Below the pieces are notes generated by a model, which was given only the letters and a program-made list of their open reading frames with translations, ran no database searches and was not told the DNA's origin. This document shows, in pieces, positions 17,437 to 62,780 of a DNA stretch of 64,000 bases. This DNA is from Eledone cirrhosa (Eukaryota): assembly GCA_964016885.1 (NCBI GenBank), contig OZ024743.1, positions 349,804,001-349,868,000 on the forward strand, in the 5' to 3' direction. How positions within the stretch are numbered: the stretch's first letter is position 1; each line of letters begins with the position of its first letter. A program made the position numbers and the translations under genes.

Positions 17437-17825
17437 TGGCGGTGGATTGGCAGTATCGGTAGAGGGTCGGACACCATTCTTTGTAGTAGAGAAGTACGGC
17501 CCTTTACGGTCTGAGTTCAAATCCCACCGAGGTTAACTTTGCCTTTCATCCTTACGGGGTAGATAAAATAAAGTACCAGTAATGTACTGGGTAATTGCTG
17601 GCCTTGTGCCCAAAATAGAAACAATTATATATAATCTTGATGGCGGTGGATTGGCAGTATCGGTAGAGGGTCGGACACCATTCTTTGCAGTAGAGAATTA
17701 CGGCTCTTTACGGTCTGAGTTCAAATCCCACCGAGGTTAACTTTGCCTTTCATCCTTACGGGGTCAATAAAATAAAGCCGCAGTAATGCACTGGGATAGT
17801 TGCTGGCCTCGTGCCAAACGTACAA
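17437..17825 (+). mobile_element. Two tandem SINE copies
   Basis: Period about 204 bp. The flank TTATATATAATCTTGAT is repeated before each copy and, degenerately, after the second. Confidence 0.9.
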
Positions 17826-24175: not shown

Positions 24176-24594
24176 TGCAATCCTCAAGTATGTATGCATA
24201 TATATGTCTGTCTGTATGTCTGTCTGTATGTCTGTCTGTCTGTCCGTCCGTCTGTCTGTATGTCTGTATGTATGTATGTATGTGTGTGTGTGTGTGTACG
24301 TACGTGTGTATTATCTTAATTTCAGTGTCAATTGATTGTCAGTATTGCATTTGCATCACCGCAAGCAATAAATTATAGTGAAATAAGATTTAAGCACTCC
24401 CCATCTCTTGCACTTAGCTAATGACTGGTATCATGTACTAGCCCTCATGTTATCAACTTTCTTAAATACCGTCGGATTAGATCGCACTCCCTTAAGATAT
24501 TATTACGTAAGTGTTGGCTGGCGCCTCATGGGCCTAACCTTTTATATTCAATGAAGTGAAGGATTGAAAAGTAGAACACACAGAACATGTATAT

Positions 24595-25761: not shown

Positions 25762-27196
25762 CGTTCGACCGCCCCCCCCCCCCCACTTATCCCCCTCTAA
25801 CGCCACTAACACACCCTCCTTTTCACCGCCCACCTCACATTAACAATACTAACACCTCCACTCCACCCCTCATCTGACCACCCTTCCCCAACTAACATAC
25901 TAACATCCCTTCCCTCCCCTCTTCTCCTCCTCCCCCCTCCTTATCACACGCACACACCCACCGGCACATATATACACGCGCTCACACTAAACACACACCC
26001 TACTACCACCACTAACCCTCACCCCCACACCTCTCACCCCCACACCTCCATCCCACCACCCCGCAACTAACCTCACTAACAGCCCCTAACCCCAAGCACA
26101 CGAACACACGCACCCACTTACACCACCCACCCCACACGCAACTAACATCACTAACACCCCCCAACCCCACGCACACGTACCCACACACCCTCGTACACCA
26201 CCAACTCTACACACCCTACCACCAATAACCCCCACTCACACCTGCATTCAACCCCTCCCCACCTCCCGTATACTAACACCCACTAACACCTCTTCATCAA
26301 ACTACACACACACTAGTACACCACACTCCCTCCATAGAACCACACACACCCTTCTCTCCCCGCTCCACCCACACCTTCGCTCCACACTCACTCATCCCAC
26401 TAACACCCCTACTAATACACACACACACACACCCTCCTCACTCCAACTTTCACACCTACCCATCCTCGCCCCCTTACCATTCCACCGACTGCTGTTATGC
26501 CCTCTGACCACCTCCCAGCACTAACAGACCACAGCACTCCCACTGCTGACCAATTCCTGTTGCGCGCGCACCCCACATCTCTCCTCTTCCGACCACCGCT
26601 TCATGGATTACCCACACGCAGAAATTGACTTACAACCAATCCACTAAACATCCTTGGAACTTACCAACTTTTCAACCATCCTCTTACGTAATCACCTATA
26701 TAACTCACCACATATTTACACCACATATTTACACCCTCAGCCTCCTGATTCCTCTCCCCCCACCCTCCTATCCACACACGCACAGACACTCCGACCCACA
26801 AAAACACCCCCCACACACACCTCTTCCTGAACATGCAACCCCGTTCTTCCCCCAACCCTTACTTTCACATACACACACACACACGCACAGGCACACCTAC
26901 ACACACACACCACTTTCAGCCCTCCCCGCTGGGACACCCCGTCTCCCTCTCCCCACTCCACCCGCCACCTACTCACTCCACACCCTTCCACCACCTGTTT
27001 ACCCCCCTTTTAATTTCAGTTTATTTTGATCATGCCTTTACTTTTAAATTTTCTCATTCCTTGTATTTTGATCATGCTTTATTTTTATTTTTTATCTTTA
27101 TTTGTTATTTTTTCATTCGCACCGTTTCCTTTCGCTATATGTCTCTCCACCACTCCCCTACACACCCTTTGAACTCTGTTCCCACACACTTCTCAC

Positions 27197-27224
27197 CTGA
27201 GGAAGGGCTTATGCCCGAAACGTC
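27197..27224 (+). ncRNA. Minimal hammerhead core in the PLE 3' pseudo-LTR
   Basis: CUGAGGA-A-GGGC(UUAU)GCCC-GAA-ACGU-C, with a palindromic helix III. Helix I is only about 2 bp. Confidence 0.55.
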
Positions 27225-27314
27225 GTCCCCCACCTACCCCCCACTCTCTTGAGCGTGAAATTAATAAACATTTATTGTACTGCCTCTCTGTTTTGTCCCT
27301 GTTCAAATTTTTCC

Positions 27315-27345
<31 letters not shown>

Positions 27346-37379: not shown

Positions 37380-37560
37380 TTGGATTGGTAGTATCGGTAG
37401 AGGGTCGGACGTCATGCTTTGAAGCATAGAGTTACCTCCCTATATGATCTGAGTTCAAAACCCGCCGAGGTTAACTTTGCCTTTCATCCTTACGGGGTCG
37501 ATAAAATAAATACCAGTAATGCACTGGGGTATTGCTGGCCTTGTGCCAAAAGTAGAAACA
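37380..37560 (+). mobile_element. SINE copy
   Basis: Family match; 3' hairpin TGGC-CTTGT-GCCA at 37536-37548. Confidence 0.9.
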
Positions 37561-41716: not shown

Positions 41717-42299
41717 ATTATAACTTCGCATCGAGTCAAGTTCAACACAGCCTTTGATCCTTAGAGGGTCGATCAAATATAGTACTAGTCAGGGCCGAAT
41801 TGAGGCCTTTGCGGAGTCCCGGAACTTGAGGTTTGGCGGGGCCCCTCATACATTAAAAAAAATTACAAATGACCTGTTGCCACCAGTGGTCAAAAGAGTA
41901 AGTATATGAATACATTCTGTCATTACCACCACAGAAGACCTGTGACCTTTGATTCCAGAATCGGGCCAGATCGATTCAGATCGAACCTTGAGTTGATCAA
42001 AAGCGAAACGCGCGTCGCTACTCAATAAACGTAACGAAGACATAACAATTCTTCCTTTTTATTATTTGCCTTCCATCCTTATGGCGTCGATAAAATAAAG
42101 TAACAGTAATGCACTGAGTAATTGCTGGCCTTGTGCCAAAAGTAAAAATATTATTATTATTATTACAGTTGAATTTATCTCGCTTTATGTTCATATGAGT
42201 TATCACCAAGTCATAACCAGTGACCTCAAGAGACAACAAAGTCCGCCATGTTCAAGAAAGAACATACATACACGCACATGCATCTTTAGGTATTTAGAT

Positions 42300-42695
42300 T
42301 TGTGATGTACTTATATTGACAGAATCTTCCTTAGTATATGGGCAGTTCCCATTAGTACTATCTTTTGTATTTCTCCTATACGCGGGTTTCCTGGGATTTG
42401 CGATAAGTAATCATTAGACCTCAAAGGTATCATTCCTAGAGCGCCTACAACCACTGGTATTGTTTTAGTTCTCAATTTCCACATTTTTCCAATTTCTATC
42501 TCCAAGTCTTTATACTTGCTTAATTTTTCAAATGTTTTTATAGATACATTCTTGCCTATTGTAACGGACATATCAATTAGCAGGCATACCCTCTTTTTAA
42601 AGTCCTTCAGTATTATATCAGGTGTATTTGCATCTAATTTTAGGTCTGTTTAGATGCTAAAGTTCCACAAGATTGAGATGTGATCTTTTTCAAGT
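42300..42695 (-). mobile_element. R4/Dong-type 3' fragment (restriction-like endonuclease)
   Basis: KLSKYKDLEIEI...IPVVVGALG...IQKIVLMGTAHILRK; the 5' junction lies in (TAA)n on its own strand. Confidence 0.8.
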
Positions 42696-42928
42696 ATTAT
42701 TATTATTGTTGGTGAAGCCACGCTTCTTATCGCCTCCAGTTTTTTTTAACGTTTGAAACTCGTTTTCAACCGTTCTAAATCTTTTATTCAAGTTTTAAAT
42801 TTGATGAAAGTTTAGAAGAAGTGACCCACCTAATACAGGGGTTCACTCATAAATAATACGGCACCCCTTTGCGGGGTGTCGTATTTGTATTTGTGTAAAA
42901 ATATTTTTTGAAAGAAAAAAATTTCAAC

Positions 42929-45060
42929 ATGGATAATACAAGAAACAGATAGAGCACTGTCAGACAACACAGAGAGGGGGAGACTTTATCAGCATGTCAA
43001 CAAGACAGCGTTCCAGCGGAGGTAAATATAAACGAAAATATTACAAAGGAAAGGAGGACCAATATCAATTTTAATGATATTGTTACAGATTTAAAATTAC
43101 CAAATATTTCTAACACAAACAACACCAACAATAACACAAACAACAACACCATCGATAACAACAGCAACAACAAAAATAACAGCGGTAGGGTCGAGAACGA
43201 CAATAACAAAAATAACAGCGTTAAGGTCGAGAACGACAATAACAAAAATAACAGCGGTAAGGTCGAGAACGACAATAACACTGACAATAACAACAGCCAC
43301 AACAACAATAATAGTAGGAACAGTATCAACAAAAACAACAATAATAACAACAGCCACAATAACAGTAACAACAGCAACAGTATCAACGAAAACAACAACA
43401 ACACCAACAACAGTACCAACGAAAACATCAACAATGACATCGATACATGTAACAGCGATCTCAGCACCACCAGTAAGACCAGTAGCGGCAGCAATAGTGG
43501 TGCTGCTGAAAAGGGGACCACTTCTTTTGCAGGTGTCGCCCGAAATATCGAGACAGTGTTATTCACAGAGGAGGAGATGGCAGTCGCAAGGGCCATGGTG
43601 ACAAGAAGCGCCAATAGAGTCTCCCTGAAACCTCCACCCAATTTGTTCAAGGACCAGCAGCTACGGACGGTGACTTACCGCATCGTAAGAAAAATCTCAC
43701 ATCGGGTGGAGAGAGCCACGGAGGCTCAAATCCAAAAGGCCTTGGGGTGCGTCTGGGCAAGCAAAACCCACATCACCCGAGGCAGAAAGTACGCCACAGT
43801 AGACGTAATTTTCGCCACCCCCCAAGAAGCGAAGCCTCACTCTTTGGAAACCCTAAAGAGTGAGGAGATAGTCTTGCTGCCCTCCTACTGCGGGCAGAAA
43901 ATTGTGAGGGTCAAAGTGACCCAGGTCCCACCCGACGTGCCCATACCTTGGCTGACCGCGTCTGTTCTTGCTGGAATCGAGGACAGGACGACCATGCTGC
44001 AAGTAGAGAAAATAGGGAGAGAGAACTGGTCAGGTATAGGCATGCAAATGCTTATACAAACTGACCAGGAATGTATCGACGCTATCCCCGATATCATAGA
44101 CGTCGAGGAAAGGCTCCAACTCCCTATAAGCGTAGAAGGAAGACGGCCAAAATGTTATCTCTGTATGTCGAAGGTTCACCTCAGGGCCTTTTGCCCGCAG
44201 AAGACAGCGAAGTAGAAGGCCCCTCTCCTTCCAATACCCGGTCCGCTGCTACCAAGAGCAGGCCAGGCAACAAATGCAGAAGCCCTTTCCACGGTGAGTA
44301 GGAGGGCAACGTCCGTGGAACCCGTACCAAGGCCACGGACAACTAAAGCAGCAGCATCAGTGGCGGCAACACCAAAAGCTACATTTGTAGTAGCTGCACC
44401 AGCAACAAAATTGCCGGGGACGGCTCCACTACCATCACCAACAGCCGTGGAGCACATACCCCTCCCAGACGCCACGGAATCCGACACGGAGTTTAGGCGG
44501 GAGTGAAGTGGCAAACGGTCTGCCACAAAAAACAAAAAACTCAAAACCCCTTAGCTTCGCCCTCCAAAAGCGAAGGCACACAAAGAGGGGTAAAGGCAGC
44601 AAGGAAACGTGCAGCAACACCACCACCATCACCACCACAATCACTACCGCCAATAACAACCACACCACCACCAGCATCACCAAAAACACCAACAAAATAA
44701 AACACACACACCAAACAGCAACAAGAAGAAAACAGCAACAAAATCACCCCTCCCCGCAAAAAGTACACAGCCATAAACCTGACAAAAAAAGCACTCATAC
44801 AATATATAAAGCAGCACACAGACATTACAGAAAAAAACTACTACACCCCACCAACACCAAGAACTCTCCCGACAAACATAAGCATCATTGAAATCTCAAT
44901 AGAACAGTACACACTTTTAAAACAAAAATTCCCCAACGCAGTTGGACACTTCAGAGGGTCGGTTACCAAGAGGATATACACTGACATCCTCTTGGAAACA
45001 CCCATGACCAGCCAAAGGGACTGTTCTACTCTCCCTTCACGACACGATCAAGGTAAGTGA
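42929..45060 (+). pseudogene. Tx1 copy A ORF1 (Asn-rich N-terminus, core, zinc knuckle, Pro/Thr-rich tail)
   Basis: The ATG at 42929 is in frame with ORF 43556-44215. There are premature stops (42950, 44213, 44504) and frameshifts. It aligns with ORF 49316-50794. Confidence 0.8.
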
Positions 45061-45092
45061 CCCTTTCTCACTTTCCCCGTTTCTCACCCAAC

Positions 45093-48000
45093 ATGTCCGT
45101 ACTCAGAATAGGCAGTATATGGCCTGGGGTCATCTTGGAAGCAGGGTCACCTGCTCAACGAACTCGGGTCACTAAACATAGATGTGGTGGCCATCAGCGA
45201 GACCAGAATCTCCGAACCACAAGCCTTCGCATCGATGTTCGGCGGCTACGATGTATACACATTTCCCAGCCGTCCAGGATCTGTGGGAGGGGTTGCCGTC
45301 ATTTTTCGGAGAGGCCTGGATCTCGCCATACGGGCCATCTTCCTAGACCCAGAAGGTAAGTCGGTGGTGCTGGACGTGACCGGCAGCGAAGGCAATGCTT
45401 TCAGGCTAGTAGCCGTACGCCCCAACAGGAGCAGGACGGCCAGATTTCTTTAGACGTCTAGAGACCTTTCTTGGAACGTCCCGCTCTTTAGTGTTAGTGG
45501 GCGACTGGAACGGTATCTTAGATGCACGCTGGGATTGTGTGGGGATAGTGGATAGGGGAGGAGGGTGCAAGAGCCTCACCAACCTGCTCAGACGTTTTGA
45601 ACTGTCTGACAGGTACCGACTGGGTCACTCGAATGTGCCAATGTGGACATGGACAAACCGCATCGGGTCATCCAGATCGTATCTCGATAGTGTATTCTGC
45701 AGGGAACTAGATAAGGCTAGTATAAGTTGTCCACAATTTAAAATAGTCGACTACACAGACCACAAATTTGTGATCTGTGAGATCGACATAGACAGACTTC
45801 ATAGACAAGAACCCGGTTACTGGAAGATGAACGCGTCTTTCCCGGCGCACAAAGCCTACAGAGACCGGATTAACGTTTTAGTTAAGCCGGCGTTGACGGG
45901 AGCGGTCGTCAACAACTGGTGGTGGTTCCCCCTGAAAAGAGCAATTAAAGTAGAGTCGATTAGGTTTAGCAAAGGAGTAGTGATAGAGGAAAATAGTGTA
46001 GAGGCAGAGCTACTCAGAAAGCTAGAAGAAGCGTTTAGGACAGGCATCGCAACCGACCAATTCTTCAACGGAAAAAACGAAGGCCGCGTTGTCAGAGCAA
46101 GAGCGCGTGCCCTGAAACCCGAGGGGACAAAAGCTGTCCAATGGGCCCGGGTGTCAGAGGCGCGACGTGGAAACAAAGCCACAATTCGGTCTTTATCTGA
46201 ACAAAACGGGCGCCTGTTGCTCGAACCCGAGCAGATGTGTGAAGCTTTTCAGCAGCACTTTGCTGAACTGTTCAGGAGCAGCGGCGGGCCGGATCAGGGT
46301 ATGGACTTCAGTGCATACATCGACTGACTGCCTCGGCTCTCGACGACCGCAACACAGTGTTGCAAAAAAACAATAAAAGCCGGTGAAATACGGGAAGCGA
46401 TGGCTAACTGCACGAGAGGTAAATCGCCAGGTTTGGATGGTCTGCTCTACGAGCTTTATGCATTCATGCCACCCTTGTTCGGTGACCTCTTGGTGGACGT
46501 CTACTGCAACTAGCAGCATAACGGGACCACAACCAGTTTTGTGAGCCGGGGAGCGGTGGCGCTGCTGAGGAAAGACCCGAACAATGGGGATGTTATCGAT
46601 AACTTCAGGCCCATAACCCTGCTAAACGCAGAGTTCAAGATTTTGGCCAAGGTGTTAGCAACGAGGTTAGGGCTTGTCGTCAAGGGTCTGTGGGAGAAGC
46701 GCAGATATGCGCCATTCCGGACAGATCCATACACGACAACCTCCACCTCATGCGATACATCATAGAGAGGGTGGTTAAGGAACTGGCACGAGTGAGGCCC
46801 TTATCAACTTGGATCAATCCAAAGCATTCGATAGGGTCGAAAATCGGTACCGAGGCAGCCGGTTTCAGGCCCGTTTTCAGGGGTGGGATCGCTGCGATGT
46901 ACAGCGACATCAGCTCAGTTGTAAGCGTGAAAGGTCACCTGTCGCAGCCGTTCAGCATCATACGCTCGATCCGCCAGGGTTGTTCCCTCTCGTCCCTCTT
47001 GTAGGTATTGGCTCTCGAGCCGTTACTGCACAAACTGGGGGCGATAAGGGGAGTCCCACGCGAACTTGGATGCGGGAAATCTGAATCGGCTTACGCCGAC
47101 GACGTCATCGTGGTGGTGTCGAGCACCAGACACGTCCAGATGCTCGGCACCGCTCTCAAGCAATACGAAGTGGTGACAGGAGCAAAGATAAACCAGGAAA
47201 AGTCGGTGGATTTGCAGCTCGGCACCTGGAGAGGCAAGTCCATGCCGTCCGACAGCGTCGCGGGGCGTTGGACGGACGGACCGGTTAAATTGCTCGGCAT
47301 CTGGTTCGGACCGAACCTCCAGATGGAGAAAGACTGGAGCGAGGTGACGAGCGAGTTGGCCTCCCTCACCCAGAAATGGGCCAATAGGAAGCTGTCCCTG
47401 AAAGGCCGGGCGGATGTGGCGAATGCGTACATCGCATCCATCATCTGCTACCGCCTCACCATCGTCAATTGCTCAGGCCCAACTCTCACCAAATGGAGCG
47501 CCTCCTCTTCCGCTTTTTTGTGGAAACGACGCGCTCCCATAGTCAGACGATCCATCTGCTGCCAACACCCGTTGCGTGGAGGACTGGGCATGCCATGGCT
47601 GATGTTGCGCAAACATGCGCTGAGGCTGCGACATCTCTGGTGCTTCCTTGACGGTGAACAGGTGTGGCCGCCGTTCGCCAGGCACGTTTTCCCACAGCTC
47701 GTCTCCATGACGGAGCTGCAGTCCTGGGTCAGAAAAAGACTGAGGGATAGCGCTTGGAAATTGGAGTGTCTCCAGGCGCTCACTGCCCTCTGCCAGCTGG
47801 GCACCAGTATCGGTGGAACATCCACCTCGGCGTTCTATAGAGGACTAGTGGAGGCGAAGAGCGACAACGTTCTCGGAGATATCCTGGGCGTCGAAGAAGA
47901 TCAGCTGTTTGCTCTCTTCCGGAGAACTTTCAGCCCAGGGCCTATGTATAACTTTCAAAAAATCCCTGGCCTGGCAGTGCTACCGGGAAGCGTTGCCGGT

Positions 48001-48460
48001 TCGAGATAAGCTCTACAGGCACGGAAGTGCCGTCAGCCGAGCCTGTCCGAGATGCGCGCAGAGCGATGAAAGCGTCGTGCACGCACTCGTTCAGTGCCCG
48101 ATCATTGCTGACTTGTGGATCTATGTCGAACAGTTGCTGTCGCGTGTGGGACTGATCCGGTTGTCGACTGAGTCCATTGTGCAGATGGTCTCGCCGTCTT
48201 CCTTCGAGGAGGAAGGGCAGGCGGTTTTCATCTGCCTGGTGGCCATGGCGAAAGAGATTGTGTGGTGGACAAGGTTGAAAGGGTTAAAGACAGATACTTT
48301 CCTCTTCGGCGAATCCCTAATTAACTTTTTCAAGTTTCACTTGAAGAGGAAAATAAGGGTGGATAGGCAAGTGCTGCCTTCTAGCAAGTCTGTTGAAAGG
48401 TGGGTGAATGTAGCGAGAATGGTCCGAATGAACGGGACCGCTCTGAATATACGCCTGTAG
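45093..48460 (+). pseudogene. Tx1 copy A ORF2 (APE endonuclease-RT-zinc finger)
   Basis: VAISETR, VGDWN, YTDHK, GYWKMN, NFRPITLLN, DQSKAFDRV, RQGC, AYADD and CPRC...HALVQC; several frameshifts. Confidence 0.9.
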
Positions 48461-49315
48461 TTTGTGAAATGTAAAAATTGAGAGAGGGCGCTTGCCCTGG
48501 TGGTCAGGGCGGCCGTGGTGTTTTGTGTGGTTTTCGCCACGAGTAATCCTCGGAGGTTTCCCCCCTATTGGGGAATATTTCATTGTTTCAATTTTCATTT
48601 TTATTGTTTATATATATGTTTCTGTCTTTTTCTTTTTCTTTTCTTATATAAATAATAAAAATCTTTACACGCACAAATCCCACATCGAACCGTCCTATAC
48701 CGTCCTGTGCCGTCTGTAATTTTTTTCTTGATGTCAGCCCTTGTGGCCAATAAAGAAATCATTATTATTATCATTATTATTATTATTATTGAATGCCATG
48801 GTTGACGGAGGCTCGGCTCTGTAAGGTATAGTAAATTTTAACCGCTATAACAATTGTAAATTGTTTAAAACTTTAACCAGATTGTAGACAAAAACACCCT
48901 CCTCCTCGTAAGAGGGGTCTTTCTGTCCGTTATTTGGCCCTTCGGGGTTAAATAACCGCTTATTGTGTTTTGTGCTCAATATTTATTTTAAACCAAAAAA
49001 AAACTTGGCTACAAAAAAGAATTTTCATAGGTCACTCCCACTCATTCCGTCTTCTTCTTCCTCAATCGTCACTACACCAGAGAGAAGATTGTCTCTCTCC
49101 CTCCATTCTCTAAATATGTCTCTCTCCCTCCATTCTCTAAATATGTCTCTCTCCCTCCCTTCTCTTTCGCAAGCGACGCCAGTAAAGAAAAAGAAAATTA
49201 TAGTTTGTGATAGTTTCCAAGATCACGTGCAAAACGTGGAACATTTCTCCACGACGACGACAACGACGAAAAATGTGTGCGGTAAATACGGAAACCCATT
49301 TCATTCTCTGACGTC

Positions 49316-51141
49316 ATGAATAATAGCAGTAGCAGCCGTAATAACAGCAGCAGCAGCAACAGCGACAAGAAAAACAACAGTAGCAGCCGCAACAGCATCA
49401 GCAGCAGCATAAACAACAACAGTATTAGCAGCAACAACAACAGCAACAGCAGCAACAACAACAACCACAGCAACAGCGGCGGCGGCAGTCGTAGTACCAG
49501 CAGCCATAACAAAAGTAACAGCAGCTCTGACGACAACAACAACAACAACGACAAAGAAAAACCAATCTCGTTTGCAGGTATCGCAAAGAACCTGGAAACC
49601 ATCCTTATAACAAATGAGGAATTACAGGAAGCAAAGAAGATGGTGACGAAAACCGGACACCAAGCAATCTGCAAGGCAGCCGAAAAATGTTTCGAAACCC
49701 AACAGCACTGTACAGTAAGCACAAAACCCCGTAGGGTTGAAAGAGCCACAAAGGCTCAAATACAAAAAGCCTTAGGGTCTGTGTGGCAGCGGAAAACGCA
49801 TATCACCCGAGGCAAGAAATATGCCACCGTGGACGTGCTTTTTGCCACACCCCAGGAGGCAAAGGCTCAATCCTTAGTGACCCTAAGGAGCGAGGAAATG
49901 GTGTTGGTGCCCTCCTACTGTGGACAAAAAATTGTGAGGGTGAAACTGACCCACGGCCCCCTGGCGTCTGTCCTCGTCGGAATTGAGGACAAAACAACTG
50001 TACTGCAAGTACAGAAAAAAGTACGAGAAGACTGGGTCGGCACCTCCATTGAGATGTTAATCCAAACCAACCAGGAGTGCATCGAAGCTATCCCGGATGT
50101 GATAGACTTCGATAACGGCACTCAACTGCCCATAAGTGTTGAGGGCAAGCACCCGAAATGCTTTCGCTGTGGATCGAAGACTCACCTCAGGGCCTTCTGC
50201 AATGAGAAGACCCTGAGAAAGGAGAAAACCCCCCTCCTTCCGAAACCGGCTCCACTGCTACCAGCAACAGGACAGGCAGCAACCAGGAAGGATAAGTCCG
50301 TGGCACCCATACCCACGCCACGGAATTCAAGAACAGCAGCAGCAGTGGAAGTATTAACAGCAACAACAGCAATACCAACTGCAGCTGCAACAGAGACTCC
50401 ACTGCAAACATCACCAACAACAACAAATGAAAGAGTGGAGCTGGTACCCCTCCCCGACCTCACAGAATCGGACATGGAGTGTGAGGTGGGGAGGGATGGC
50501 AAAAGGTCGCAAGAAGGCACAAACGCAGAAGCAGCGCATCGTCGCCTTCGAAAAGGGAGGAAAGAAATAAAAAAAAGGGTAAAGGCTACTGCAAAGAGAC
50601 TTACAGCAGCAACACCACCAACATTATCACCACCCACACTCGCACCACCATCACCACCGGCGGCAACCCCAACGCAAACAACAACACCTTCAACACCACC
50701 ACCACAAGCACCAACATCGCAAACACAACAACAAAACACACACACCCTGCAACAACGACAAGAAATAGCAGAACCACACCCCACCCCCAGGTAAACAAAT
50801 GCACAGCAATAAATACACACAACAAGAAACTAATGACTTACATAATTGAACACACCGACATTTCACAGCACGACTACATAATACCAGCAGAAATCAAAAC
50901 ACCAACGAACATAAGACTGGTAAGAATAGCCCAGAAGCAATACACAAACATTAAAACGAAATTCCTCAACGCAGTTGATGATTTCAGAGACCAAGGAGGG
51001 ACACTCAACCGGAGAATATATTCGGACATACTCACAGAAGAGCCGACGACCAGCCGAAGGGACGATTCAACGGTCCCTTCACCAGACGATCAAGTGAAAA
51101 GGGATGGAGAAACCATCCTTCCTCTACGAAAAGTAAGGTAA
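49316..51141 (+). pseudogene. Tx1 copy B ORF1
   Basis: 492-aa ORF with an Asn/Ser-rich N-terminus and a CFRCGSKTHLRAFC knuckle. The C-terminal part continues in another frame (50833-51141). Confidence 0.85.
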
Positions 51142-51175
51142 GTGGTCTTTCCCAACTTTTCCACTCCATTTCAAC

Positions 51176-54100
51176 ATGACCTCACTCAGAATAGGCAGCA
51201 TAAATGCGCGTGGCTTGGGGTCGTCATGGAAGCAGGGCCACCTGCTCAACGACCTCAGGTTACTAAACATAGATGTAGTGGCCATCAGCGAGACCAGAAT
51301 CTCCGAAGCACGGGCCTTCGCACCGATCTTCGGCGGCTACGATGTGTACGCATCTCCCAGCCGTCCTGGATCGGAGGGAGGAGTTGCTGTGCTTTTTCGG
51401 AGAGGTTTGGATCTCGCCATACGGGCTATCTTCCTGGACCCAAAAGGTAAGTAGTTGGTGTTGGACGTGACCAGCGGAGAAGGGCAAGCTTTCAGGCTAG
51501 TGGCCGTCTATGCCCCGAGAGGAGCAGGGCGGCCTGATTTCTACCGGCGTCTGGAGACCTTTCTAGGAACGTCGCACTCTTTAGTGTTAGTGGGCGACTG
51601 GAACGGGATCTTAGATGCACGCTGGGACTGTGTTGGATTAGCGGATAAGGGAGGAGGGTGCAAGGGCCTCACCAACCTGCTCAGGCGTTTTGAACTGTCT
51701 GACAGGTACCGATTGGATTTCCCGAATGTGCCAATGTGGGCTTGGACAAATCGCATAGGGTCATCCAGATCATATCTAGATAGAGTATTTTGTAAGGAAA
51801 TAGATAGGTCTAGCATAAGCTGTCCACAATTCAAGATAGTCAGCTACACGGACCACAAATTTGTGATCTGTGTGCTTGACTCAGATAAGCTTCATAGACG
51901 AGGACCCGGCTACTGGAAGCTAAACGCGTCCTTACCAGCGCGCAAGGCCTACAGAGACCGGATTAGCGAACTAGTTAAGCGAGCGTTGACGGGGGCCATC
52001 GTCAACAAGTGGTGGTTTGCTCTGAAAAGAGCGATTAGAATAGAGTCCATTAGGTTTAGTAAGGCTTTAGTTATAGAAAAAAATAGAGCAAAGGGAGAAC
52101 TAGTTACAAAATTAGACGAGGCGCTTAGAAAAGGCATCGCGACCGACGTACTTGCGGCGAAATTGGCCCTTGACCAATTCTTCAATGCAAAGCACGAAGG
52201 ATGCGTTGTCAGAGCTAGGGTGCGTGCTCTCAGTCACGAGGGGACGAAGGCCGTTCAATGGGCCCGAGTGGCGGAGGCGCGTCGTGGCAACAAAGCCACG
52301 ATCCGGTCTTTGGTGGACCACGACGGGCGCATGCTACTCGATCCCGGGCAAATGTGTGAAGCTTTTCAGCGACACTTCGCTCAAATGTTCGGGGGCAGCT
52401 GCGCGCCGGATCGGGGGAAGGACTTTAGTGTATACCTCGACGGACGGCCGCGGCCCTCGGCCACTGAGGTGGAGTGTTGCGAAAAGCCGATAACAGCCGC
52501 TGAAGTACGAGAGGCAATGACTGGCTGCACAAGGGGTAAATCGCCTGGTTTGGATGATCTGCCCTATGAACTTTACGTACAAATGCCAGACTTGTTCGGA
52601 GGCCTCTTGGCGGACGTCTACTGCAAACGGCAACAGAACCGGATAATTCCCAGCTCTGTGAGCCGAGGAGCGGTGGCGCTGCTAAGAAAGGATCCGAACA
52701 AGGGGGATAACATAGATAATTTCAGGCCCATAACTCTGCTAAATACAGTGTTCAAGATTTTGGCCAAGGTGCTAGCAAAGAGGTTGGCGCTTGTCGTTGG
52801 TGGTCTGGTCGGAGAGGCGCAGACATACGCCATTCCCGACAGATCCATCCACGACAACCTCCACCTCATGCGATACATCGTAGAGAGGGTAGCTAGGGAA
52901 CCTAGCATGGGTGTGTCCCTGATCAATTTAGATCAGTCGAAAGATTTCGATAGGGTCGACCATCGTTACCTAGCGGCAGTCCTGAGGGCGGCTGGCTTTG
53001 GGCTCGTCTTCAGAGGCTGGATCGCTGCCATGCACAGCGACATCTGCTCTGTGGTGAGAGTGAACGGTCACCTTTCGGAACCGTTCAACATCATGCGCTC
53101 CGTCCGCCAAGGATGTCCCCCCTCGTCCCTCTTGTACGTATTGACTCTCTAGGCATTACTACACAAACTGGAGACGTTGAGGGGCGTCCCGCGCGAACTA
53201 AGATGCGGAAGATCCGTGTCAGCATATGCGGACGATGTCACCGTAGTGGTGTCGAACGCCAAACACATCGAGGCGATCGGCACTTCACTAAGAGAATACG
53301 AAGCGGTGACAGGAGCAATGATCAACCAGGAAAAGTCAGTGGGCTTGCAGCTCGGTACCTGGAGAGGCAGGTCCATGCCGTCCAACTGCGTCGTCGGGCA
53401 CTGGACGGACGGACCGGTTTAATTGCTAGGGGTCTGGTTCGGTCCGGACCTCCAGACGGACAAAATCTGGGACAAGGTGACGAGCAGGGTGGCTTCTCTC
53501 ACCCAGAAATGGGCCGAGAGGAAGCTATCCCTGAAAGGTCGAGCGGAGGTGGCTAACGCGTACATCGCGTCCGTCATCTACTACCGCCTGACCGTCGTAC
53601 CTTGTCCTAATCCGCGCCTGACTGCGCTGGAGCGTTTGCTCTTTCGCTTTTTGTGGAAGGGACGCGCTCCGATGGTCAGCCGGTCCATCTGCTGTCAACA
53701 CCCGCTACGTGGAGGGCTGGGCATGCCGTGGCTGATGATGCGCAGACACGCGCTCAGGCTGCGACATCTCCACCTCTTCCTCGACGGTGATCAGGTGTGG
53801 TCGCCGTTTGCTAGACACGTCTTTCCCCAGCTCGTCTCCTTGACGGAGCTGCAGTCCTGGGTCAAGCGAAGACCGAGAGGGAGCGCTTGGAGACTGGAAT
53901 GTCTTCAGGTGCTCACAACCCTCGACCAATCGGGCAATGTGATCGGTGGAAACTCCACCTTGGCGTTCTATAGAGGATTAGTGGATGGGAAGAGCGACGA
54001 CGTACTTGGAGAAACTCTAGGCGTCGACGAAAATCAACTAGCCAATCTCTTCGGACGGACTTTCGGGCCGGGGCCTATGGACAATTTCCAGAAATCCCTG

Positions 54101-54547
54101 GCCTGACAGTGCTACCGGGGAGCTTTGCCAGTTCGGGATAAACTCTACAGGCATGGAGGTGCCGTCAGCCGGGCATGTCCGAGATGCGCGCAGGGCGATG
54201 AAACCGTCCTGCACGCACTCGTCCAGTGTCCGAGCATTGCTGACTTGTGGGCTTATGTCGAACACCTGCTGTCATGTGTAGGACGGATCCGGCTATCAGC
54301 TGAGTCCATAGTGAGGATTGCCCCGCCCTCTGCCTTTAGCCGGGAAGGGCAGGCAGTTTTTATCTGTCTGGTGGCCATGGCGAAAGAGATAGTATGGTGG
54401 ACACGTTTGAAAGGGCTGAAGACGAGCACTTACCTCTTCGGTGATGCCCTGATTAACTTTTTCAAATTTCATTTGAAAAGGAAAATCAGGGTAGAGAGGG
54501 AAGTGCTCTCTTCCCAGCATTTTGTTGAAAGATGGGTGTGTCTGTAA
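51176..54547 (+). pseudogene. Tx1 copy B ORF2 (APE-RT-zf); frame intact but with four nonsense codons
   Basis: ORFs at 51176, 51455, 53177, 53423 and 54125 are all in one frame, separated by stops at 51452, 53150, 53420 and 54104. Confidence 0.92.
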
Positions 54548-54814
54548 ATTAAAGGTGGAAAACTGGGAGAGGGCACTTGCCCTGGTGGTCAGGGTCACTG
54601 TGGTCTTTTAATGGGCCCTCTCCACAAATGTCCCTCGGAAGTCTCCCCCCTATTGGGGAATTTTTCTTTGTTATTTTATTACATCCTCTGTTTTTTTTAC
54701 ACGCAGAAATGCCCATTTGTACCGTCCTGTATTGTCCTGCACTGTCCTTAATGTCTACTTTATGTAGACCCTTGTGGTTAATAAAGAAATCATTATTATT
54801 TTTATTATTATTGC

Positions 54815-54930
54815 CATTCTGAGTTCAAATCCCGCTGAGGTTAACTTTGCCTTTCATCCTTACGGGGTCGATAAAATAAAGTACCAGTAATGTACTGAAT
54901 AATTGCTGGCCTTATGCCTAAAGTAGAAAC
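54815..54930 (+). mobile_element. 5'-truncated SINE (others at 55755-55950, 58384-58485, 59310-59505 and 61939-62041)
   Basis: Family matches; most are preceded or followed by (ATT)n. Confidence 0.9.
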
Positions 54931-54957
54931 AATTATTATTATTATTATTAGTAGTAT

Positions 54958-55745
54958 TTTCTTTGAGTCTCAGTCATTGATGTTATTTAACTGGAAAGTT
55001 TGTTGAAATGAATATCAAGCCGCTACCTGCAGCCTCAGATATTCAGGACGTATCGGAGGGTTCTTGCTGTTCCCAGCAAGCATGCCTTTTGAAGTGTTCC
55101 AAAAAGCGGGGCTGGACGAACTTTCTTTAACCATCCTTGGAAACTCTTTGAGATAGTACCTAGTGCGCCTATGACAATCGGGACGACTCTGATTTCATGG
55201 CAGTTCCAAATCCTTTTTACCTCCCACTTTAAGTCCTGGTATCGGTTAATTTTCTCCCTCTCCTTTGCTTGCACTCTCGTGTCAAATGGGCAGGCTACAT
55301 CTATAATCAGGCACGATATTTTTTCCTTGTCCAAAACATCCAGGTCAGGCCTATCGTGTTCCAGTTTCTTATCTATCTGTATCCTAAAATCTCATAGCAC
55401 CTTCACCTGATCGTTCTCTATCACCGACATTGGCTTATGCCCATACCACTTCTCCGAATGTGGTAAATTGTTTACTTTGCATAGGTGCCAGTGGATCATG
55501 TCTCCACATGACATCATGTCTCCAGCCTTTATAGTGAGTCTGGGCTAGGTGTTTACACTCGGATACAATGTAAGCCACAGTCTTCTCTCTCTCTCTCTCT
55601 CTCTCCACAGATCCTACACGGTGGGCTTGCCTCCTCCTTGTAAATATGGTGTTTCACCCACTTCGTCTTGAGGGCCTGCTCTTGCGCAGTCATTAGCATT
55701 CATTCTGTAGCCTTTTTAAGGTCTCCTCTTTTCAACCAGTTTCAT
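54958..55745 (-). mobile_element. R4/Dong-type 3' fragment (duplicate at 58513-59300)
   Basis: IIDVACPFD...EKINRYQDLK...VPIVIGALG...LQKACLLGTARTLR; the 3' end runs into the (TAA)n that is the SINE tail on the other strand. Confidence 0.85.
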
Positions 55746-55961
55746 GTCAGTGGAGCATCGGACACCATGCTTCGTGGCATAGAGTTACAGCCCTTTACAT
55801 TCTAAGTTCAAAACCCACCAAGGTTAGCTTTGCCTTTCATCCTTACTGAGTCAATAAAATCAAGCACCAGTAAAGCACTGGGGTCGATTTAAACGACTCC
55901 CCCTCCCCCAACAAAAATAAATTGCTGACATTGTGCCTAAATCTGAAACCATTATTATTAT

Positions 55962-58371
55962 TTGCTTATTTTTTTATTTCGTATCTCGTCACAACATGTT
56001 AAAACACGTTTTTACATATTTATGCAATGTTCTTGTTGGTCATTTGTTATTGTTATAAAGTTTAATTAACCAGAATCTTTGTGAGCTGGTTGTTCTTTTC
56101 CCCTAAGAGCAAAACTCGTGTTTATTTTACAAAACACACCCTTCATTTGTTTTCTGGAAAGATATGGCGGACAACAATAACAACAACAACAATAATAACC
56201 ACAACACCAACAACAACCAAACATGGGAAATAAGTGAAGTGTATGGCACAAATTGTCTTGCATTCATAAAACGTTGTCACCGCCGTCATACCCACCAGAA
56301 AAAGGAAGAGAAACTAAAGCTAACAAAAACAACAACACTAACACGACCACTGTTACCACGTACACTACAAGACATTATAATAGAAACAAACAATAAAATT
56401 AACAGTAATACAGACATCAAAGACAACGCAATATGAACAATAAAGACAATGACACGTTTTCAGTAACGGCTGCAAAGCCACACAATTATGTAATATGTAC
56501 ATAATCGACAAATACACGTGTTCGGCTCGTGTGGTCAAACTTTCCAAATTGGAAAAGACTTAGGCCGACGTAGTCGTCCCACTGGATGTGTCAGCAGCAA
56601 CTTCAAGATATAAAAAAAAACTGACTTACCGATAGGAGAGCGCAGACATGTGCAATCGCAACTAGGTCAATACACGTCTACTTTCACGACATGCGATACA
56701 TCGTAGAGAGGAAAGGGAGTAAATTTGGCTATGTTGGTGCTCTGGTGAATATAGATCAATCGAAAGCTTTCGATTGTGTTGACAATCGCTACATGGAGGC
56801 TGTCCTCAGGACAGCTGGTTTGGGTCCCATCTTCAGAGGCTGGATCATTTCAAAGCTTAGCGATATCTTCGTTGGTCAGAGTAAAGGCCAGCTTGGAAAC
56901 CGTTTCAGATCGCTTGCTCGATCCGACAAGTATGCCCTCTCTTCTCCATTCTGTGAGTACTGACTCTACTGCAGAAGCTGGAGCTGGTGAAGGACATCCC
57001 AGTAGAACCGAGAAGGGGAGGAGCTGCGCCAGCATATGCAGACGACGATACCGTAACATTGAGAATTGTCTCGGAAATTGAGGTAATCGACAACTTTTCA
57101 GAATAATAGGAAAAGTTAACAGGAGCAAAAATTAAACCGGAGAGGTCGTTCTGTTGGTAACTCGGCACTTGGAGAGGAAAATCCATGCCATTCAACAGCG
57201 TCGTCGGACCGGTTTGATCTGGACTTCAAAGTGAATAAGATGCGCCGAGAGGAAACTATCCCTGAACGATCAGGTTGAAGTAGCAAAGGCATCATATATT
57301 AACACCTGAACATCGTAACTTGCACCAGTTCATGCCTCGCCAGGCTGGAGCACCTGCTCTTTCATTTTTTTGTGGGAAGGAAAGGTTCCACTTGTCAGGC
57401 TGTTCATCTTCTCCAGATATCCTTTGCATGGAGGGTTCAGGATTCCACAGCTAAAGATGCATAAACATGCGCCGAGGTTAGGGTGTCTGCAACTACTCCT
57501 GAACGGTCAACAGGTGTGGTCACCCTTTTACCGGCACATCTTCCCATATTCTCTCTATTCAAGCCGGAGCCTTGGGTCAAGCGAAGACCGTAACTGGGCA
57601 CGTGGCATCTGGAATGTTGTCAAGCTCTCACATCCCTCTACTAATCAGAAAGTGTGGTCAGAGGAAATTCCTTATTAGTGTTCTATAGGGGACTACTGGT
57701 GGGCAAGTGCAATTCTCGACAAGACTCTAGGTGTCGACGATAATGACCATGCCAGTCTGTTTAGGAGGACGTTCGGTTAGGTTCCGGTACCTATGGATAA
57801 TTTTCTGAACTCCCTAGCCTTGGGGGTCAAACTCTACAGGCCCGAATAAGTTGTCAGACGGATTTGTCCGAGATATACACAGAACGATGAAACTGTCCTG
57901 CACGCACTCGTCCTGTGTCCGAGCATTACTGACTTGTGGAGTTTTGTCAAACCGTTATTAATGCGTGTAAGTTGGATTCGGTTATGGGCCGACTCCATTG
58001 TCAGGATCAAACCCGTGGCCTACATTTGCCAGGGAAGGACAGACAGGTTTCCTCTGTCTGTGTCGTGAACGTGACTAAAATGACAGAAGACACACTTTCT
58101 TTTTCAGCCAAACCTCATTGACTTTTTCAAGTCTGGAGAGTACAGGGAAGAGAGGGACACCTTCCTATAATGCTTTTGTCGATTAGATTGGCTTCAGATC
58201 TCTAGAGTTCTTAAATAACCCATGGGTGATGCTCTTTCTATTGGGTAATTCTGTTGATATAAATGTATTGTTAATTGTTACCTGTATTATTTTTTGCAGG
58301 TTTTTATATGAAACTCCAATGTACTTCTGTATTGTCCTATCTGTTTCGGATCTAGTTGCCAATAAAGAAAT
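55962..58371 (+). mobile_element. Old, internally deleted Tx1 copy C (duplicate D at 59517-61926)
   Basis: Asn-rich ORF1 remnant, MRYIVER...DQSKAFD, AYADD and HALV remnants, and the end GCCAATAAAGAAAT followed by (ATT)n. It starts right after a SINE (ATT)n tail. Confidence 0.8.
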
Positions 58372-61300
58372 ATTATTATTATGATCCTGCCAAGGTTAAC
58401 TTTGCCTTTCATCCTTACGGGGTCGATAAAATAAAGTACCAGTAATGTACTGAATAATTGCTGGCCTTATGCCTAAAGTAGAAACAATTATTATTATTAT
58501 TATTAGTAGTATTTTCTTTGAGTCTCAGTCATTGATGTTATTTAACTGGAAAGTTTGTTGAAATGAATATCAAGCCGCTACCTGCAGCCTCAGATATTCA
58601 GGACGTATCGGAGGGTTCTTGCTGTTCCCAGCAAGCATGCCTTTTGAAGTGTTCCAAAAAGCGGGGCTGGACGAACTTTCTTTAACCATCCTTGGAAACT
58701 CTTTGAGATAGTACCTAGTGCGCCTATGACAATCGGGACGACTCTGATTTCATGGCAGTTCCAAATCCTTTTTACCTCCCACTTTAAGTCCTGGTATCGG
58801 TTAATTTTCTCCCTCTCCTTTGCTTGCACTCTCGTGTCAAATGGGCAGGCTACATCTATAATCAGGCACGATATTTTTTCCTTGTCCAAAACATCCAGGT
58901 CAGGCCTATCGTGTTCCAGTTTCTTATCTATCTGTATCCTAAAATCTCATAGCACCTTCACCTGATCGTTCTCTATCACCGACATTGGCTTATGCCCATA
59001 CCACTTCTCCGAATGTGGTAAATTGTTTACTTTGCATAGGTGCCAGTGGATCATGTCTCCACATGACATCATGTCTCCAGCCTTTATAGTGAGTCTGGGC
59101 TAGGTGTTTACACTCGGATACAATGTAAGCCACAGTCTTCTCTCTCTCTCTCTCTCTCTCCACAGATCCTACACGGTGGGCTTGCCTCCTCCTTGTAAAT
59201 ATGGTGTTTCACCCACTTCGTCTTGAGGGCCTGCTCTTGCGCAGTCATTAGCATTCATTCTGTAGCCTTTTTAAGGTCTCCTCTTTTCAACCAGTTTCAT
59301 GTCAGTGGAGCATCGGACACCATGCTTCGTGGCATAGAGTTACAGCCCTTTACATTCTAAGTTCAAAACCCACCAAGGTTAGCTTTGCCTTTCATCCTTA
59401 CTGAGTCAATAAAATCAAGCACCAGTAAAGCACTGGGGTCGATTTAAACGACTCCCCCTCCCCCAACAAAAATAAATTGCTGACATTGTGCCTAAATCTG
59501 AAACCATTATTATTATTTGCTTATTTTTTTATTTCGTATCTCGTCACAACATGTTAAAACACGTTTTTACATATTTATGCAATGTTCTTGTTGGTCATTT
59601 GTTATTGTTATAAAGTTTAATTAACCAGAATCTTTGTGAGCTGGTTGTTCTTTTCCCCTAAGAGCAAAACTCGTGTTTATTTTACAAAACACACCCTTCA
59701 TTTGTTTTCTGGAAAGATATGGCGGACAACAATAACAACAACAACAATAATAACCACAACACCAACAACAACCAAACATGGGAAATAAGTGAAGTGTATG
59801 GCACAAATTGTCTTGCATTCATAAAACGTTGTCACCGCCGTCATACCCACCAGAAAAAGGAAGAGAAACTAAAGCTAACAAAAACAACAACACTAACACG
59901 ACCACTGTTACCACGTACACTACAAGACATTATAATAGAAACAAACAATAAAATTAACAGTAATACAGACATCAAAGACAACGCAATATGAACAATAAAG
60001 ACAATGACACGTTTTCAGTAACGGCTGCAAAGCCACACAATTATGTAATATGTACATAATCGACAAATACACGTGTTCGGCTCGTGTGGTCAAACTTTCC
60101 AAATTGGAAAAGACTTAGGCCGACGTAGTCGTCCCACTGGATGTGTCAGCAGCAACTTCAAGATATAAAAAAAAACTGACTTACCGATAGGAGAGCGCAG
60201 ACATGTGCAATCGCAACTAGGTCAATACACGTCTACTTTCACGACATGCGATACATCGTAGAGAGGAAAGGGAGTAAATTTGGCTATGTTGGTGCTCTGG
60301 TGAATATAGATCAATCGAAAGCTTTCGATTGTGTTGACAATCGCTACATGGAGGCTGTCCTCAGGACAGCTGGTTTGGGTCCCATCTTCAGAGGCTGGAT
60401 CATTTCAAAGCTTAGCGATATCTTCGTTGGTCAGAGTAAAGGCCAGCTTGGAAACCGTTTCAGATCGCTTGCTCGATCCGACAAGTATGCCCTCTCTTCT
60501 CCATTCTGTGAGTACTGACTCTACTGCAGAAGCTGGAGCTGGTGAAGGACATCCCAGTAGAACCGAGAAGGGGAGGAGCTGCGCCAGCATATGCAGACGA
60601 CGATACCGTAACATTGAGAATTGTCTCGGAAATTGAGGTAATCGACAACTTTTCAGAATAATAGGAAAAGTTAACAGGAGCAAAAATTAAACCGGAGAGG
60701 TCGTTCTGTTGGTAACTCGGCACTTGGAGAGGAAAATCCATGCCATTCAACAGCGTCGTCGGACCGGTTTGATCTGGACTTCAAAGTGAATAAGATGCGC
60801 CGAGAGGAAACTATCCCTGAACGATCAGGTTGAAGTAGCAAAGGCATCATATATTAACACCTGAACATCGTAACTTGCACCAGTTCATGCCTCGCCAGGC
60901 TGGAGCACCTGCTCTTTCATTTTTTTGTGGGAAGGAAAGGTTCCACTTGTCAGGCTGTTCATCTTCTCCAGATATCCTTTGCATGGAGGGTTCAGGATTC
61001 CACAGCTAAAGATGCATAAACATGCGCCGAGGTTAGGGTGTCTGCAACTACTCCTGAACGGTCAACAGGTGTGGTCACCCTTTTACCGGCACATCTTCCC
61101 ATATTCTCTCTATTCAAGCCGGAGCCTTGGGTCAAGCGAAGACCGTAACTGGGCACGTGGCATCTGGAATGTTGTCAAGCTCTCACATCCCTCTACTAAT
61201 CAGAAAGTGTGGTCAGAGGAAATTCCTTATTAGTGTTCTATAGGGGACTACTGGTGGGCAAGTGCAATTCTCGACAAGACTCTAGGTGTCGACGATAATG

Positions 61301-62780
61301 ACCATGCCAGTCTGTTTAGGAGGACGTTCGGTTAGGTTCCGGTACCTATGGATAATTTTCTGAACTCCCTAGCCTTGGGGGTCAAACTCTACAGGCCCGA
61401 ATAAGTTGTCAGACGGATTTGTCCGAGATATACACAGAACGATGAAACTGTCCTGCACGCACTCGTCCTGTGTCCGAGCATTACTGACTTGTGGAGTTTT
61501 GTCAAACCGTTATTAATGCGTGTAAGTTGGATTCGGTTATGGGCCGACTCCATTGTCAGGATCAAACCCGTGGCCTACATTTGCCAGGGAAGGACAGACA
61601 GGTTTCCTCTGTCTGTGTCGTGAACGTGACTAAAATGACAGAAGACACACTTTCTTTTTCAGCCAAACCTCATTGACTTTTTCAAGTCTGGAGAGTACAG
61701 GGAAGAGAGGGACACCTTCCTATAATGCTTTTGTCGATTAGATTGGCTTCAGATCTCTAGAGTTCTTAAATAACCCATGGGTGATGCTCTTTCTATTGGG
61801 TAATTCTGTTGATATAAATGTATTGTTAATTGTTACCTGTATTATTTTTTGCAGGTTTTTATATGAAACTCCAGTGTACTTCTGTATTGTCCTATCTGTT
61901 TCGGATCTAGTTGCCAATAAAGAAATATTATTATTATGATCCTGCCAAGGTTAACTTTGCCTTTCATCCTTACGGGGTCGATAAAATAAAGTACCAGTAA
62001 TGTACTGGATTAATTGATCGCCTTGTGCCAAAAGTAGAAACAATTATTATGTGAGTGTACCTGTGTGTGTCTGTGTGAGTGTGCCCTTCTATCAGGTTAA
62101 GTGTATTTATCTGTTCAAATTACATATCTAAACACCAAGAGAAAGAGGGATGCAGAGAATGAGAAGGAAAGGGAGAGAGACAGAGTCAGAAAGAAAGTTA
62201 AACGAATGATACAGATGAAGGAGCAGCGTTATTACTGATTTCAAACGTGTTGAGGACTTATAATAAGCGGGTAGTGATGAATTATGTATATACGATATCT
62301 GTATATATAATAGAAAATAGTAACCTAAGTAAACATGAAAGAACAGCCGAACTCCCACTGTCATCGCCTCCATTATTATTATTATTTTCTTAGTTTTTGC
62401 ATTCTGCGGTTCAATCACACCATGGGCATCTTTGCTGATCATCCTTCGGAGATCCAAACAATATGCTATCATTTAAGTACTGGTGTCTATGTAATCGACA
62501 ATATATATCTCTCTAAATATGGGCTGTTTCAGCTGCTTTTTTAAAGGTATGTAGAATTACATTAGGCAATAAGGCGTGCCCATTTTTATGTTTGATTTGG
62601 AGAAGATTTAGTTTATTTCAGATCAGGTGACAATGCAGAGACCCCCTCTGTGCATTTGTTTATATATCTTCAACGTTTCCTATTCTGTTTATTATATATG
62701 TGTAGATCGATGTTATTTTTATCTGTGAGTAGTTATATGGTATGTTTTCCTATACCTTTTCATATTTAATTTTAATTAAT

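Follow-up and report, generated by a model that had tools for sequence, protein, structure and literature searches.

A Tx1-like LINE lineage that targets (ATT)n is the probable partner of the dominant SINE of Eledone cirrhosa and may recognise it by a 3' hairpin

Which long interspersed nuclear element (LINE) copies the dominant short interspersed nuclear element (SINE) of the Eledone cirrhosa genome, and by what signal? The question is raised by a stretch of 64,000 nucleotides (nt), hereafter the window (GenBank assembly GCA_964016885.1, contig OZ024743.1, positions 349,804,001 to 349,868,000 of the forward strand), which is part of a 3.0-Gb assembly with chromosome-scale contigs. Two Tx1-like LINE copies and the SINEs of this window end in similar small hairpins, and a preliminary description had proposed that the LINE mobilises the SINE through a CUUGU stem-loop. 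Our analysis suggests that the SINE is probably copied by a Tx1-like lineage inserting at (ATT)n, a partner better named the ATT-targeting Tx1 lineage than after the families of the two window copies. The pairing is supported because, of the LINE ends sampled, those of Tx1 match the SINE tail best when anchored at the end, and because the two elements have the same ATTAT target on the same strand and overlapping ages. Recognition by this lineage through the hairpin is slightly harder to believe than to doubt; here the earlier proposal fared less well, as the loop varies and the SINE hairpin is outcompeted in predicted folds.

The Tx1-like LINE

The motifs placed by the preliminary description at 48737-48747 (GCC-CTTGT-GGC, LINE copy A), 54767-54779 (GACC-CTTGT-GGTT, copy B) and 37536-37548 (TGGC-CTTGT-GCCA, a SINE) are all present, and in each case an A-rich spacer, AGAAA and ATT come next. 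Copy A is a decayed forward-strand element (42708..48760) with a zf-RVT match, an approximate 5' end abutting an ATT run and a family A 3' end, where the hairpin AGCC-CTTGT-GGCC (48736..48748; three pairs and an outer A.C mismatch) precedes AATAAA-GAAATC. Copy B, also on the forward strand (48791..54791), is chimeric, an A-type head and first open reading frame (ORF1) being joined to a family B ORF2 and 3' untranslated region (UTR); its hairpin, for which the family form is AACC/GGTT, precedes AATAAA-GAAATC and ATT repeats. The forward-strand (ATT)n run between them (48761..48790) is both the end of copy A and the target of copy B.

The open ORF1 frame of copy B (49286..50794, forward) carries a CCHC zinc knuckle near 50160. 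Its ORF2 (51176..54547, forward, ATG at 51176) is interrupted, as described earlier, by four internal stops (at 51452, 53150, 53420 and 54104), and long open ORF2 frames of 1,073-1,150 amino acids are present elsewhere in the genome. ORF2 has an APE endonuclease, a reverse transcriptase (RT) and a C-terminal zinc-binding domain, the architecture of the L1 clade, with Pfam matches to PF03372 (below cut-off), PF00078 and PF13966. The best PDB matches are human L1 ORF2p (E 2e-26), with R2 next at 2e-9, and the ORF2 homologues have the same domain architecture. Among the homologue matches no named Tx1 reference appeared; the nearest relatives, at 39-44%, are unnamed elements. The Tx1 subclade is characterised by an ORF1 with a CCHC knuckle and by sequence-specific insertion, and both features are seen here, in the knuckle of copy B and in heads that directly follow ATT runs in 20/21 cases. 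We take the lineage to be Tx1-like on these features and not on an RT tree.

The first ~2.3 kb of copy B is 84-95% identical to locus L311 (A-type, full length) and the remainder is 94-96% identical to locus L307 (family B). The chimera junction lies just 5' of ORF2, and the 5' end of copy A is different again, which suggests exchange of ORF1 and 5' UTR among Tx1-like families. Targets also differ within the lineage. (ATCT)n, not (ATT)n, flanks some families (loci L167, L180, L072, L125, L168, L378-L384 and L398-L400), and a family ending in TGCC-CT(A/G)GT-GGCA always precedes one non-microsatellite sequence starting (C/T)CACTC and occurs in ~6-kb tandem arrays (L371, L377, L385-L390 and L397), likely by sequence-specific insertion into another repeat. 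The target has been switched within one Tx1-like lineage with the 3' hairpin retained. A metagenome contig search found no relatives; contigs of four runs from three organisms cover a Tx1 end and the SINE, only the AACC form being present among the matches listed, and they are not used as evidence.

The SINE

The SINE is ~185 nt long and present in high copy number, with target duplications and 5' truncations. Exact tails of the form TGGC-CTTGT-GCC-N6-AGAAA number 219,261 genome-wide, against none for the control. One full-length copy (17438..17623, forward), the first unit of a tandem pair, has a tRNA-like head with a B-box-like GTTCAAATCC recognised by eye, a core, the tail and an 18-nt target duplication starting with ATTAT; neither ARAGORN nor Rfam detected a tRNA in the SINE. 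The MetaSINE superfamily is defined by a 66-bp Meta domain after a tRNA head, and the core of the present SINE is, we presume, perhaps of Deu/Nin type. MetaSINE identity was rejected by eye, the core being unlike the BivaMeta and BivaMD alignments in the supplement of PMC4824008. A 32-nt piece of the core also occurs in a tandem array (L180:8647-8968, reverse strand).

One SINE 3' end reads TGGC-CTTGT-GCCA-AAAGT-AGAAACA (37536..37560, forward). The SINE is without the AATAAA of the LINE and ends at AGAAAC(A), and the next bases usually belong to a target duplication starting with ATTAT. What had been described as an (ATT)n tail is thus largely target-site duplication. The spacer between hairpin and AGAAA is 6 nt long in 206/211 tails though its sequence varies; differences between SINE subfamilies are restricted to it, GGCCTTGTGCC and AGAAA being constant.

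Tail match, insertion target and age

Three SINE tails were compared with LINE ends by end-anchored ungapped identity over 30 nt, with P values from dinucleotide shuffles. Identity to nine Tx1 ends was 16-21/30 (P = 0.0005-0.019), against 8-15/30 for twelve non-Tx1 end variants (P>=0.05); the nine Tx1 ends are related, so the tests are not independent, and it was a likeness already seen that led to the comparison. The non-Tx1 ends came from three CR1, two RTE-type, two Dong, two Nimb-like and two Ingi-like families, clade names being our reading of their RT sequences, and from one Penelope, which reached 10/30. As none of these tails matched, Dong/R4, RTE, Nimb, Ingi, the three CR1 families and Penelope were rejected as partners, Dong also because it lies on the opposite strand of ATT runs. 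A better match to RTE, CR1 or Dong, which would have spoken for a different partner, was not found among the sampled ends. Random genomic sites 5' of ATTAT reached at least 16/30 in 25/2,728 cases and at least 19/30 in none, a null that is lowered by its omission of hairpin-like sites. As a positive control, an RTE-tailed SINE matched the two RTE-type ends but none from Tx1. The length of the SINE spacer sets loop, AGAAA and target in register with Tx1 families A, B, C, D and H.

Two further pairs were seen in this comparison. A second abundant short element and an RTE LINE have ~40 nt of 3' end and a (GAT)n tail in common (L144, L127, L150, L166 and L169) and form a classic RTE/SINE pair. Short elements with a tail resembling that of the third CR1 family (L172:4846 on the reverse strand, L144 and L269) are probably one half of a CR1/SINE pair.

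The SINE and the Tx1-like LINE insert at the same sequence in the same orientation. ATTAT stands at the same-strand 5' junction of 31/53 unbiased SINE copies (7 on the opposite strand), 38/99 truncated Tx1 copies (3 on the opposite strand) and 20/21 full-length Tx1 heads, compared with 1/19 for ATT-tailed CR1 and a background of 6%. Junction spacing has a median of 17 nt for the SINE (n=119) and 18 nt for Tx1 (n=47). Extra loci L341-L370, a biased set consisting of SINE heads with ATT runs, entered these spacing counts, the search for Tx1 duplications and every row that covers all copies. Of the unbiased SINE copies, 21/53 are surrounded by non-repetitive duplications of 12-21 nt, and flank matches of at least 12 nt were found in 66/190 copies vs about 5 in shuffled pairings. 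Both elements are frequently stacked head-to-tail at each other's ends, an adjacency that gives no insertion order.

Divergence of the SINE has a median of 5.1% for the short type (n=53) and 9.3% for the long type (n=16). For Tx1 it is 1.8-2.4% in families A and B and 5-9% in F/G and C, all values being biased by selection. The age comparison called for in the preliminary description gives overlapping ranges, the older ATT-targeting families lying nearer the SINE peak than A and B.

The 3' hairpin

A degenerate search for NNCC-CNNGT-GGNN-AATAAA, in which loop positions 1, 4 and 5 were held constant, retrieved 30,925 Tx1-like 3' ends genome-wide vs 8 for the reversed control. In the window, the 8-mer alone is not enriched (2 found vs 1.04 expected by chance), but the motifs are markers of family 3' ends. 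AACC-CTTGT-GGTT is present in 28/30 B-family loci and AGCC-CTTGT-GGCC in 25/30 A-family loci. Paired family stems include AACC/GGTT, GGCC/GGCC, GGCC/GGCT and TGCC/GGCA; AGCC/GGCC and TGCC/GGCT have an outer mismatch. An older, 5'-truncated copy of family C in the window (56635..58385, forward), duplicated at 60190-61940, has lost the 3' hairpin (at ~58385 and, in the duplicate, at ~61940), and its relatives elsewhere read GGCC-CT(A/T)GT-GGCC.

The loop had been called invariant, which it is not. By hand count, 100 listed ends of the 30,925 carry 60 CTTGT, 13 CCTGT, 12 CTAGT, 7 CTGGT, 7 CTCGT and 1 CCAGT; for the SINE, CTTGT is found in 223 of the 250 tails in register (270 tails in all) and in 15/23 window tails. 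Loop identity in Tx1 tracks the target, CTTGT occurring in 110/113 ATT-flanked ends, 3/11 ATCT-flanked ends and 0/6 ends at the fixed CCACTC site, with 9 ends unclassified and many of the ATT ends retrieved by their likeness to families A and B.

Stem pairing holds in 87.5% of cells over 22 distinct ends, three of them SINE tails, and double changes occur at 3/4 stem pairs. The covariation score is 0.379 vs at most 0.087 in shifted registers. In a 63-copy tree, in which several long or chimeric rows are misplaced, stems group largely by family, so the independent events are few. Pair 2 shows about one clean event and the outer pair one or two; a further one separates LINE and SINE, the SINE stem differing from the TGCC/GGCA stem by a single C-G to G-C flip. 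The compensatory evolution read from the window's three stems is found between Tx1 families, in few independent events, and between Tx1 and the SINE, but not among SINE copies. In the SINE stem (T)GGC/GCC(A), the inner three pairs hold in 94-97% of the 250 tails and the fourth forms in 50%.

Folding was measured as the predicted probability of the closing pair in contexts of 35, 75 and 130 nt. For the Tx1 hairpin, the median is 0.8-0.95 at 35 nt in most families and drops in B, F/G and E/H as context is added; family A retains 0.79 at 75 nt.

Evidence against the pairing and alternative explanations

Several of our results weigh against the pairing or against the hairpin as its signal. The stretch common to SINE and Tx1 is 30 nt at 55-70% identity, with background level further upstream, whereas the RTE/SINE pair of the same genome shares, by eye, ~40 nt near-exactly; by the usual standard of such pairs the Tx1/SINE match appears weak. 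A clear long unique duplication was seen in only 1/104 Tx1 rows (L382, 17 nt), in a search affected by noisy boundaries, nested insertions, uncertain 5' ends and pure-ATT targets. Families A and B, biased young as they are, seem younger than the SINE peak, and the LINE ends compared are a partial set, which leaves aside Hero, R2, CRE, L2 and most CR1 and RTE families. As to the signal, the closing pair of the SINE hairpin has a median predicted probability of 0.86 at 35 nt, 0.03 at 75 nt and 0.14 at 130 nt, the fall at 75 nt arising because its 5' arm pairs upstream; in one copy, forcing the hairpin, in a fold with both small hairpins, costs 1.7 kcal/mol, and no folding z-score is significant. 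The hairpin could still be favoured by co-transcriptional folding or by protein binding. No covariation was found among the 250 SINE tails, where the fourth pair is T-T in 119. Covariation in Tx1 comes down to one clean event, with the outer pair mismatched in two families, and the shuffle result (the observed score reached by 0/500) is a count and not a probability.

These points bear on three alternatives. A minor though real possibility is that the Tx1 lineage mobilises the SINE with no signal from the hairpin: the SINE tail would be a worn Tx1 relic, terminal annealing of AGAAA-NN-AUU would be what matters, and the LINE stem, which directly abuts AATAAA, may serve 3'-end formation. Such an account sits well with the poor folding of the hairpin in SINE context, with the missing covariation among SINE copies and with the unconstrained loop of families D, E and H; in the available part of PMC4494074, moreover, SINEU and Tx1-Mar are paired by a common target with no common tail. 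It leaves unaccounted for why SINE subfamilies vary only in the spacer, why the double change between SINE and Tx1 stems preserves pairing, and why the hairpin is kept in a SINE that has no AATAAA. If the Tx1 partnership is granted, the hairpin would be moderately favoured as a determinant.

It is unlikely, on the evidence at hand, that the true partner is an unsampled or extinct LINE (another CR1, L2, Hero, R2 or CRE) and that the Tx1 likeness arose by convergence or chance at ATT-rich sites. Our comparison covered 11 non-Tx1 LINE families and one Penelope, and the curated library of Octopus vulgaris, in the sections of PMC13282606 available, holds many recently active families (13 CR1, 13 RTE, 5 Dong, 2 Hero and 1 R2). 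The second CR1 has a look-alike, TGGC-CTGG-GCCA, ~30 nt from its end (15/30, P = 0.054 if cut short), and long unique duplications, frequent around the SINE, are seldom seen around Tx1. Searches from the SINE tail and from its target point the other way. De novo clustering 5' of ATT runs gave clear same-strand ends in at least 3 loci for the SINE, Tx1 and one CR1 only. The SINE tail behind non-SINE bases had 338 matches, with heterogeneous upstream sequence in the 100 listed; of 30 loci of this class, the 26 in the correct orientation were kept and comprise 13 with SINE body and 13 stubs with nothing common upstream, several with ATTAT duplications. No separate family with the exact SINE tail behind another upstream sequence was thus seen among the 100 listed matches and the 26 loci read.

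Mobilisation by the young CR1 family through the common repeat is highly improbable: the family is abundant, carries long open frames and has an (ATT)n end, and CR1 and L2 are known SINE partners in bivalves (PMC4824008, available part), but its tail match is 11-12/30 and not significant, its own hairpin differs, only one of its 19 junctions carries ATTAT and none of the 19 copies with a 5' boundary has a long duplication starting with ATT. Young ATT-tailed CR1 copies often lie within minisatellite arrays with no clear target duplication (L321, L334, L335 and L340).

A model for SINE mobilisation

If the ATT-targeting Tx1 lineage is the partner, a tentative mechanism, of which we are a little more doubtful than confident, can be outlined. 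Its ORF2p would nick Y|ATTAT, prime on terminal AUU and bind a module of hairpin, spacer and AGAAA that the SINE mimics. The tRNA-headed SINE would be copied by this ORF2p through recognition of a ~30-nt 3' module, consisting of a predicted hairpin of 3-4 bp with a CYNGU loop, an A-rich spacer of fixed length and AGAAA. After the putative nick, the terminal AUU of the RNA would anneal to the nicked strand, hairpin and AGAAA would place the RNA on ORF2p, and reverse transcription would start just after AGAAANN. Every insertion would then create a fresh ATTAT site after AGAAANN and so account for the tandem stacks. The SINE would have retained the 3' module without the AATAAA of the LINE.

With somewhat less conviction still, the model may be widened to an animal Tx1 lineage with stringent recognition of a CYNGU pentaloop and AGAAA, kept across (ATT)n, (ATCT)n and fixed-site targets, of which one sub-lineage amplified the SINE to more than 200,000 copies. 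If this is true, stringent recognition would be supported as ancestral in the L1 clade, and the element that drives the genome's most abundant SINE would be identified. The mechanism would also be open to testing in a system that offers natural compensatory variants and long open ORF2 frames, the stem and loop variants forming a series for asking how L1-type ORF2p went from RNA-structure to poly(A) recognition.

Other elements of the window

A 5'-truncated SINE (54813..54931, forward; loop variant CTTAT at 54907-54918) lies directly 3' of the ATT run of copy B. In the ATT run 3' of this SINE follows, antisense, a Dong/R4-like LINE 3' fragment (54951..55800, reverse strand) with a tail unrelated to the SINE. 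Copies of two Dong/R4-like families (54951-55800, 58506-59355 and 42166-42680, all on the reverse strand) sit antisense within ATT runs that SINE and Tx1 ends have left, and at least four element families use ATT runs as a common landing pad. The repeat content of the window (Dong/R4, RTE, CR1 and L1/Tx1) points to a cephalopod; among molluscs, R4-Dong is nearly confined to that group (PMC10294476, in the part available). A 3.55-kb tandem duplication (54829-58494 / 58384-62050, 99.7% identity), with a SINE, the Dong fragment, a SINE and Tx1 copy C in its units, is either recent or an assembly artefact. A Penelope-like element at 24568-27315 has, by eye, an RT and a GIY-YIG-type frame, and near its 3' end a motif that we take to be hammerhead-like.

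Comparison with known systems

Mammalian L1 recognises poly(A), hence its loose copying of SINEs and mRNAs, and the eel UnaL2/UnaSINE1 elements are a stringent LINE/SINE pair with a common 3' stem-loop. The pairing proposed here would extend a known mechanism and not add a new one. Stringent L1-clade pairs and a Tx1-mobilised SINE have already been published; our literature search found no animal Tx1/SINE pair with a common structured tail, and as repeat databases and several older papers were outside it, a prior description is possible.

The present pair resembles the eel pair in ending with a short repeat behind a 3' stem-loop of which the loop is conserved and the stem varies, as it does the bivalve CR1/SINE pairs in the accessible part of PMC4824008. 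Unlike in these pairs, the partner here is of the L1 clade, the likeness is 30 nt at 55-70% identity, and the repeat is mostly target and not tail. In a survey of 58 SINE/LINE pairs, the L1-tailed SINEs are three, all from plants or an alga, and maize, sorghum and Chlamydomonas have been proposed to contain stringent L1-clade pairs (PMC3472496, as far as its available text goes). LINE1-1_ZM with ZmSINE2/3 and L1-1_CR with SINEX-3_CR are closest to our case, with a conserved compensatory 3' hairpin read as stringent recognition, a stringency that is an interpretation there as it is here (same sections of PMC3472496). These pairs have ~50-80 nt in common, and poly(A) is reported for most plant L1s as well as for the algal pair (same sections), whereas the present lineage is animal, target-specific, Tx1-like and ends at ATT.

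Crocodilian SINEU was assigned to Tx1-Mar, like our SINE to its partner, from target preference and overlapping age, and has snRNA heads and poly(A) tails, with no LINE similar to the 3' half of SINEU-1 (PMC4494074, in the portion available). Here, in contrast, a tRNA-like head is combined with a structured 3' module common to SINE and LINE. Kibi and Koshi are Tx1-type elements. With Kibi (TC), Koshi (TTC) and Dong (TAA), the present families share sequence-specific insertion into microsatellites (PMC3812793, available part). Unlike those elements, they are found at (ATT)n, at (ATCT)n or at a fixed repeat site, and a SINE is the probable partner of one sub-lineage.

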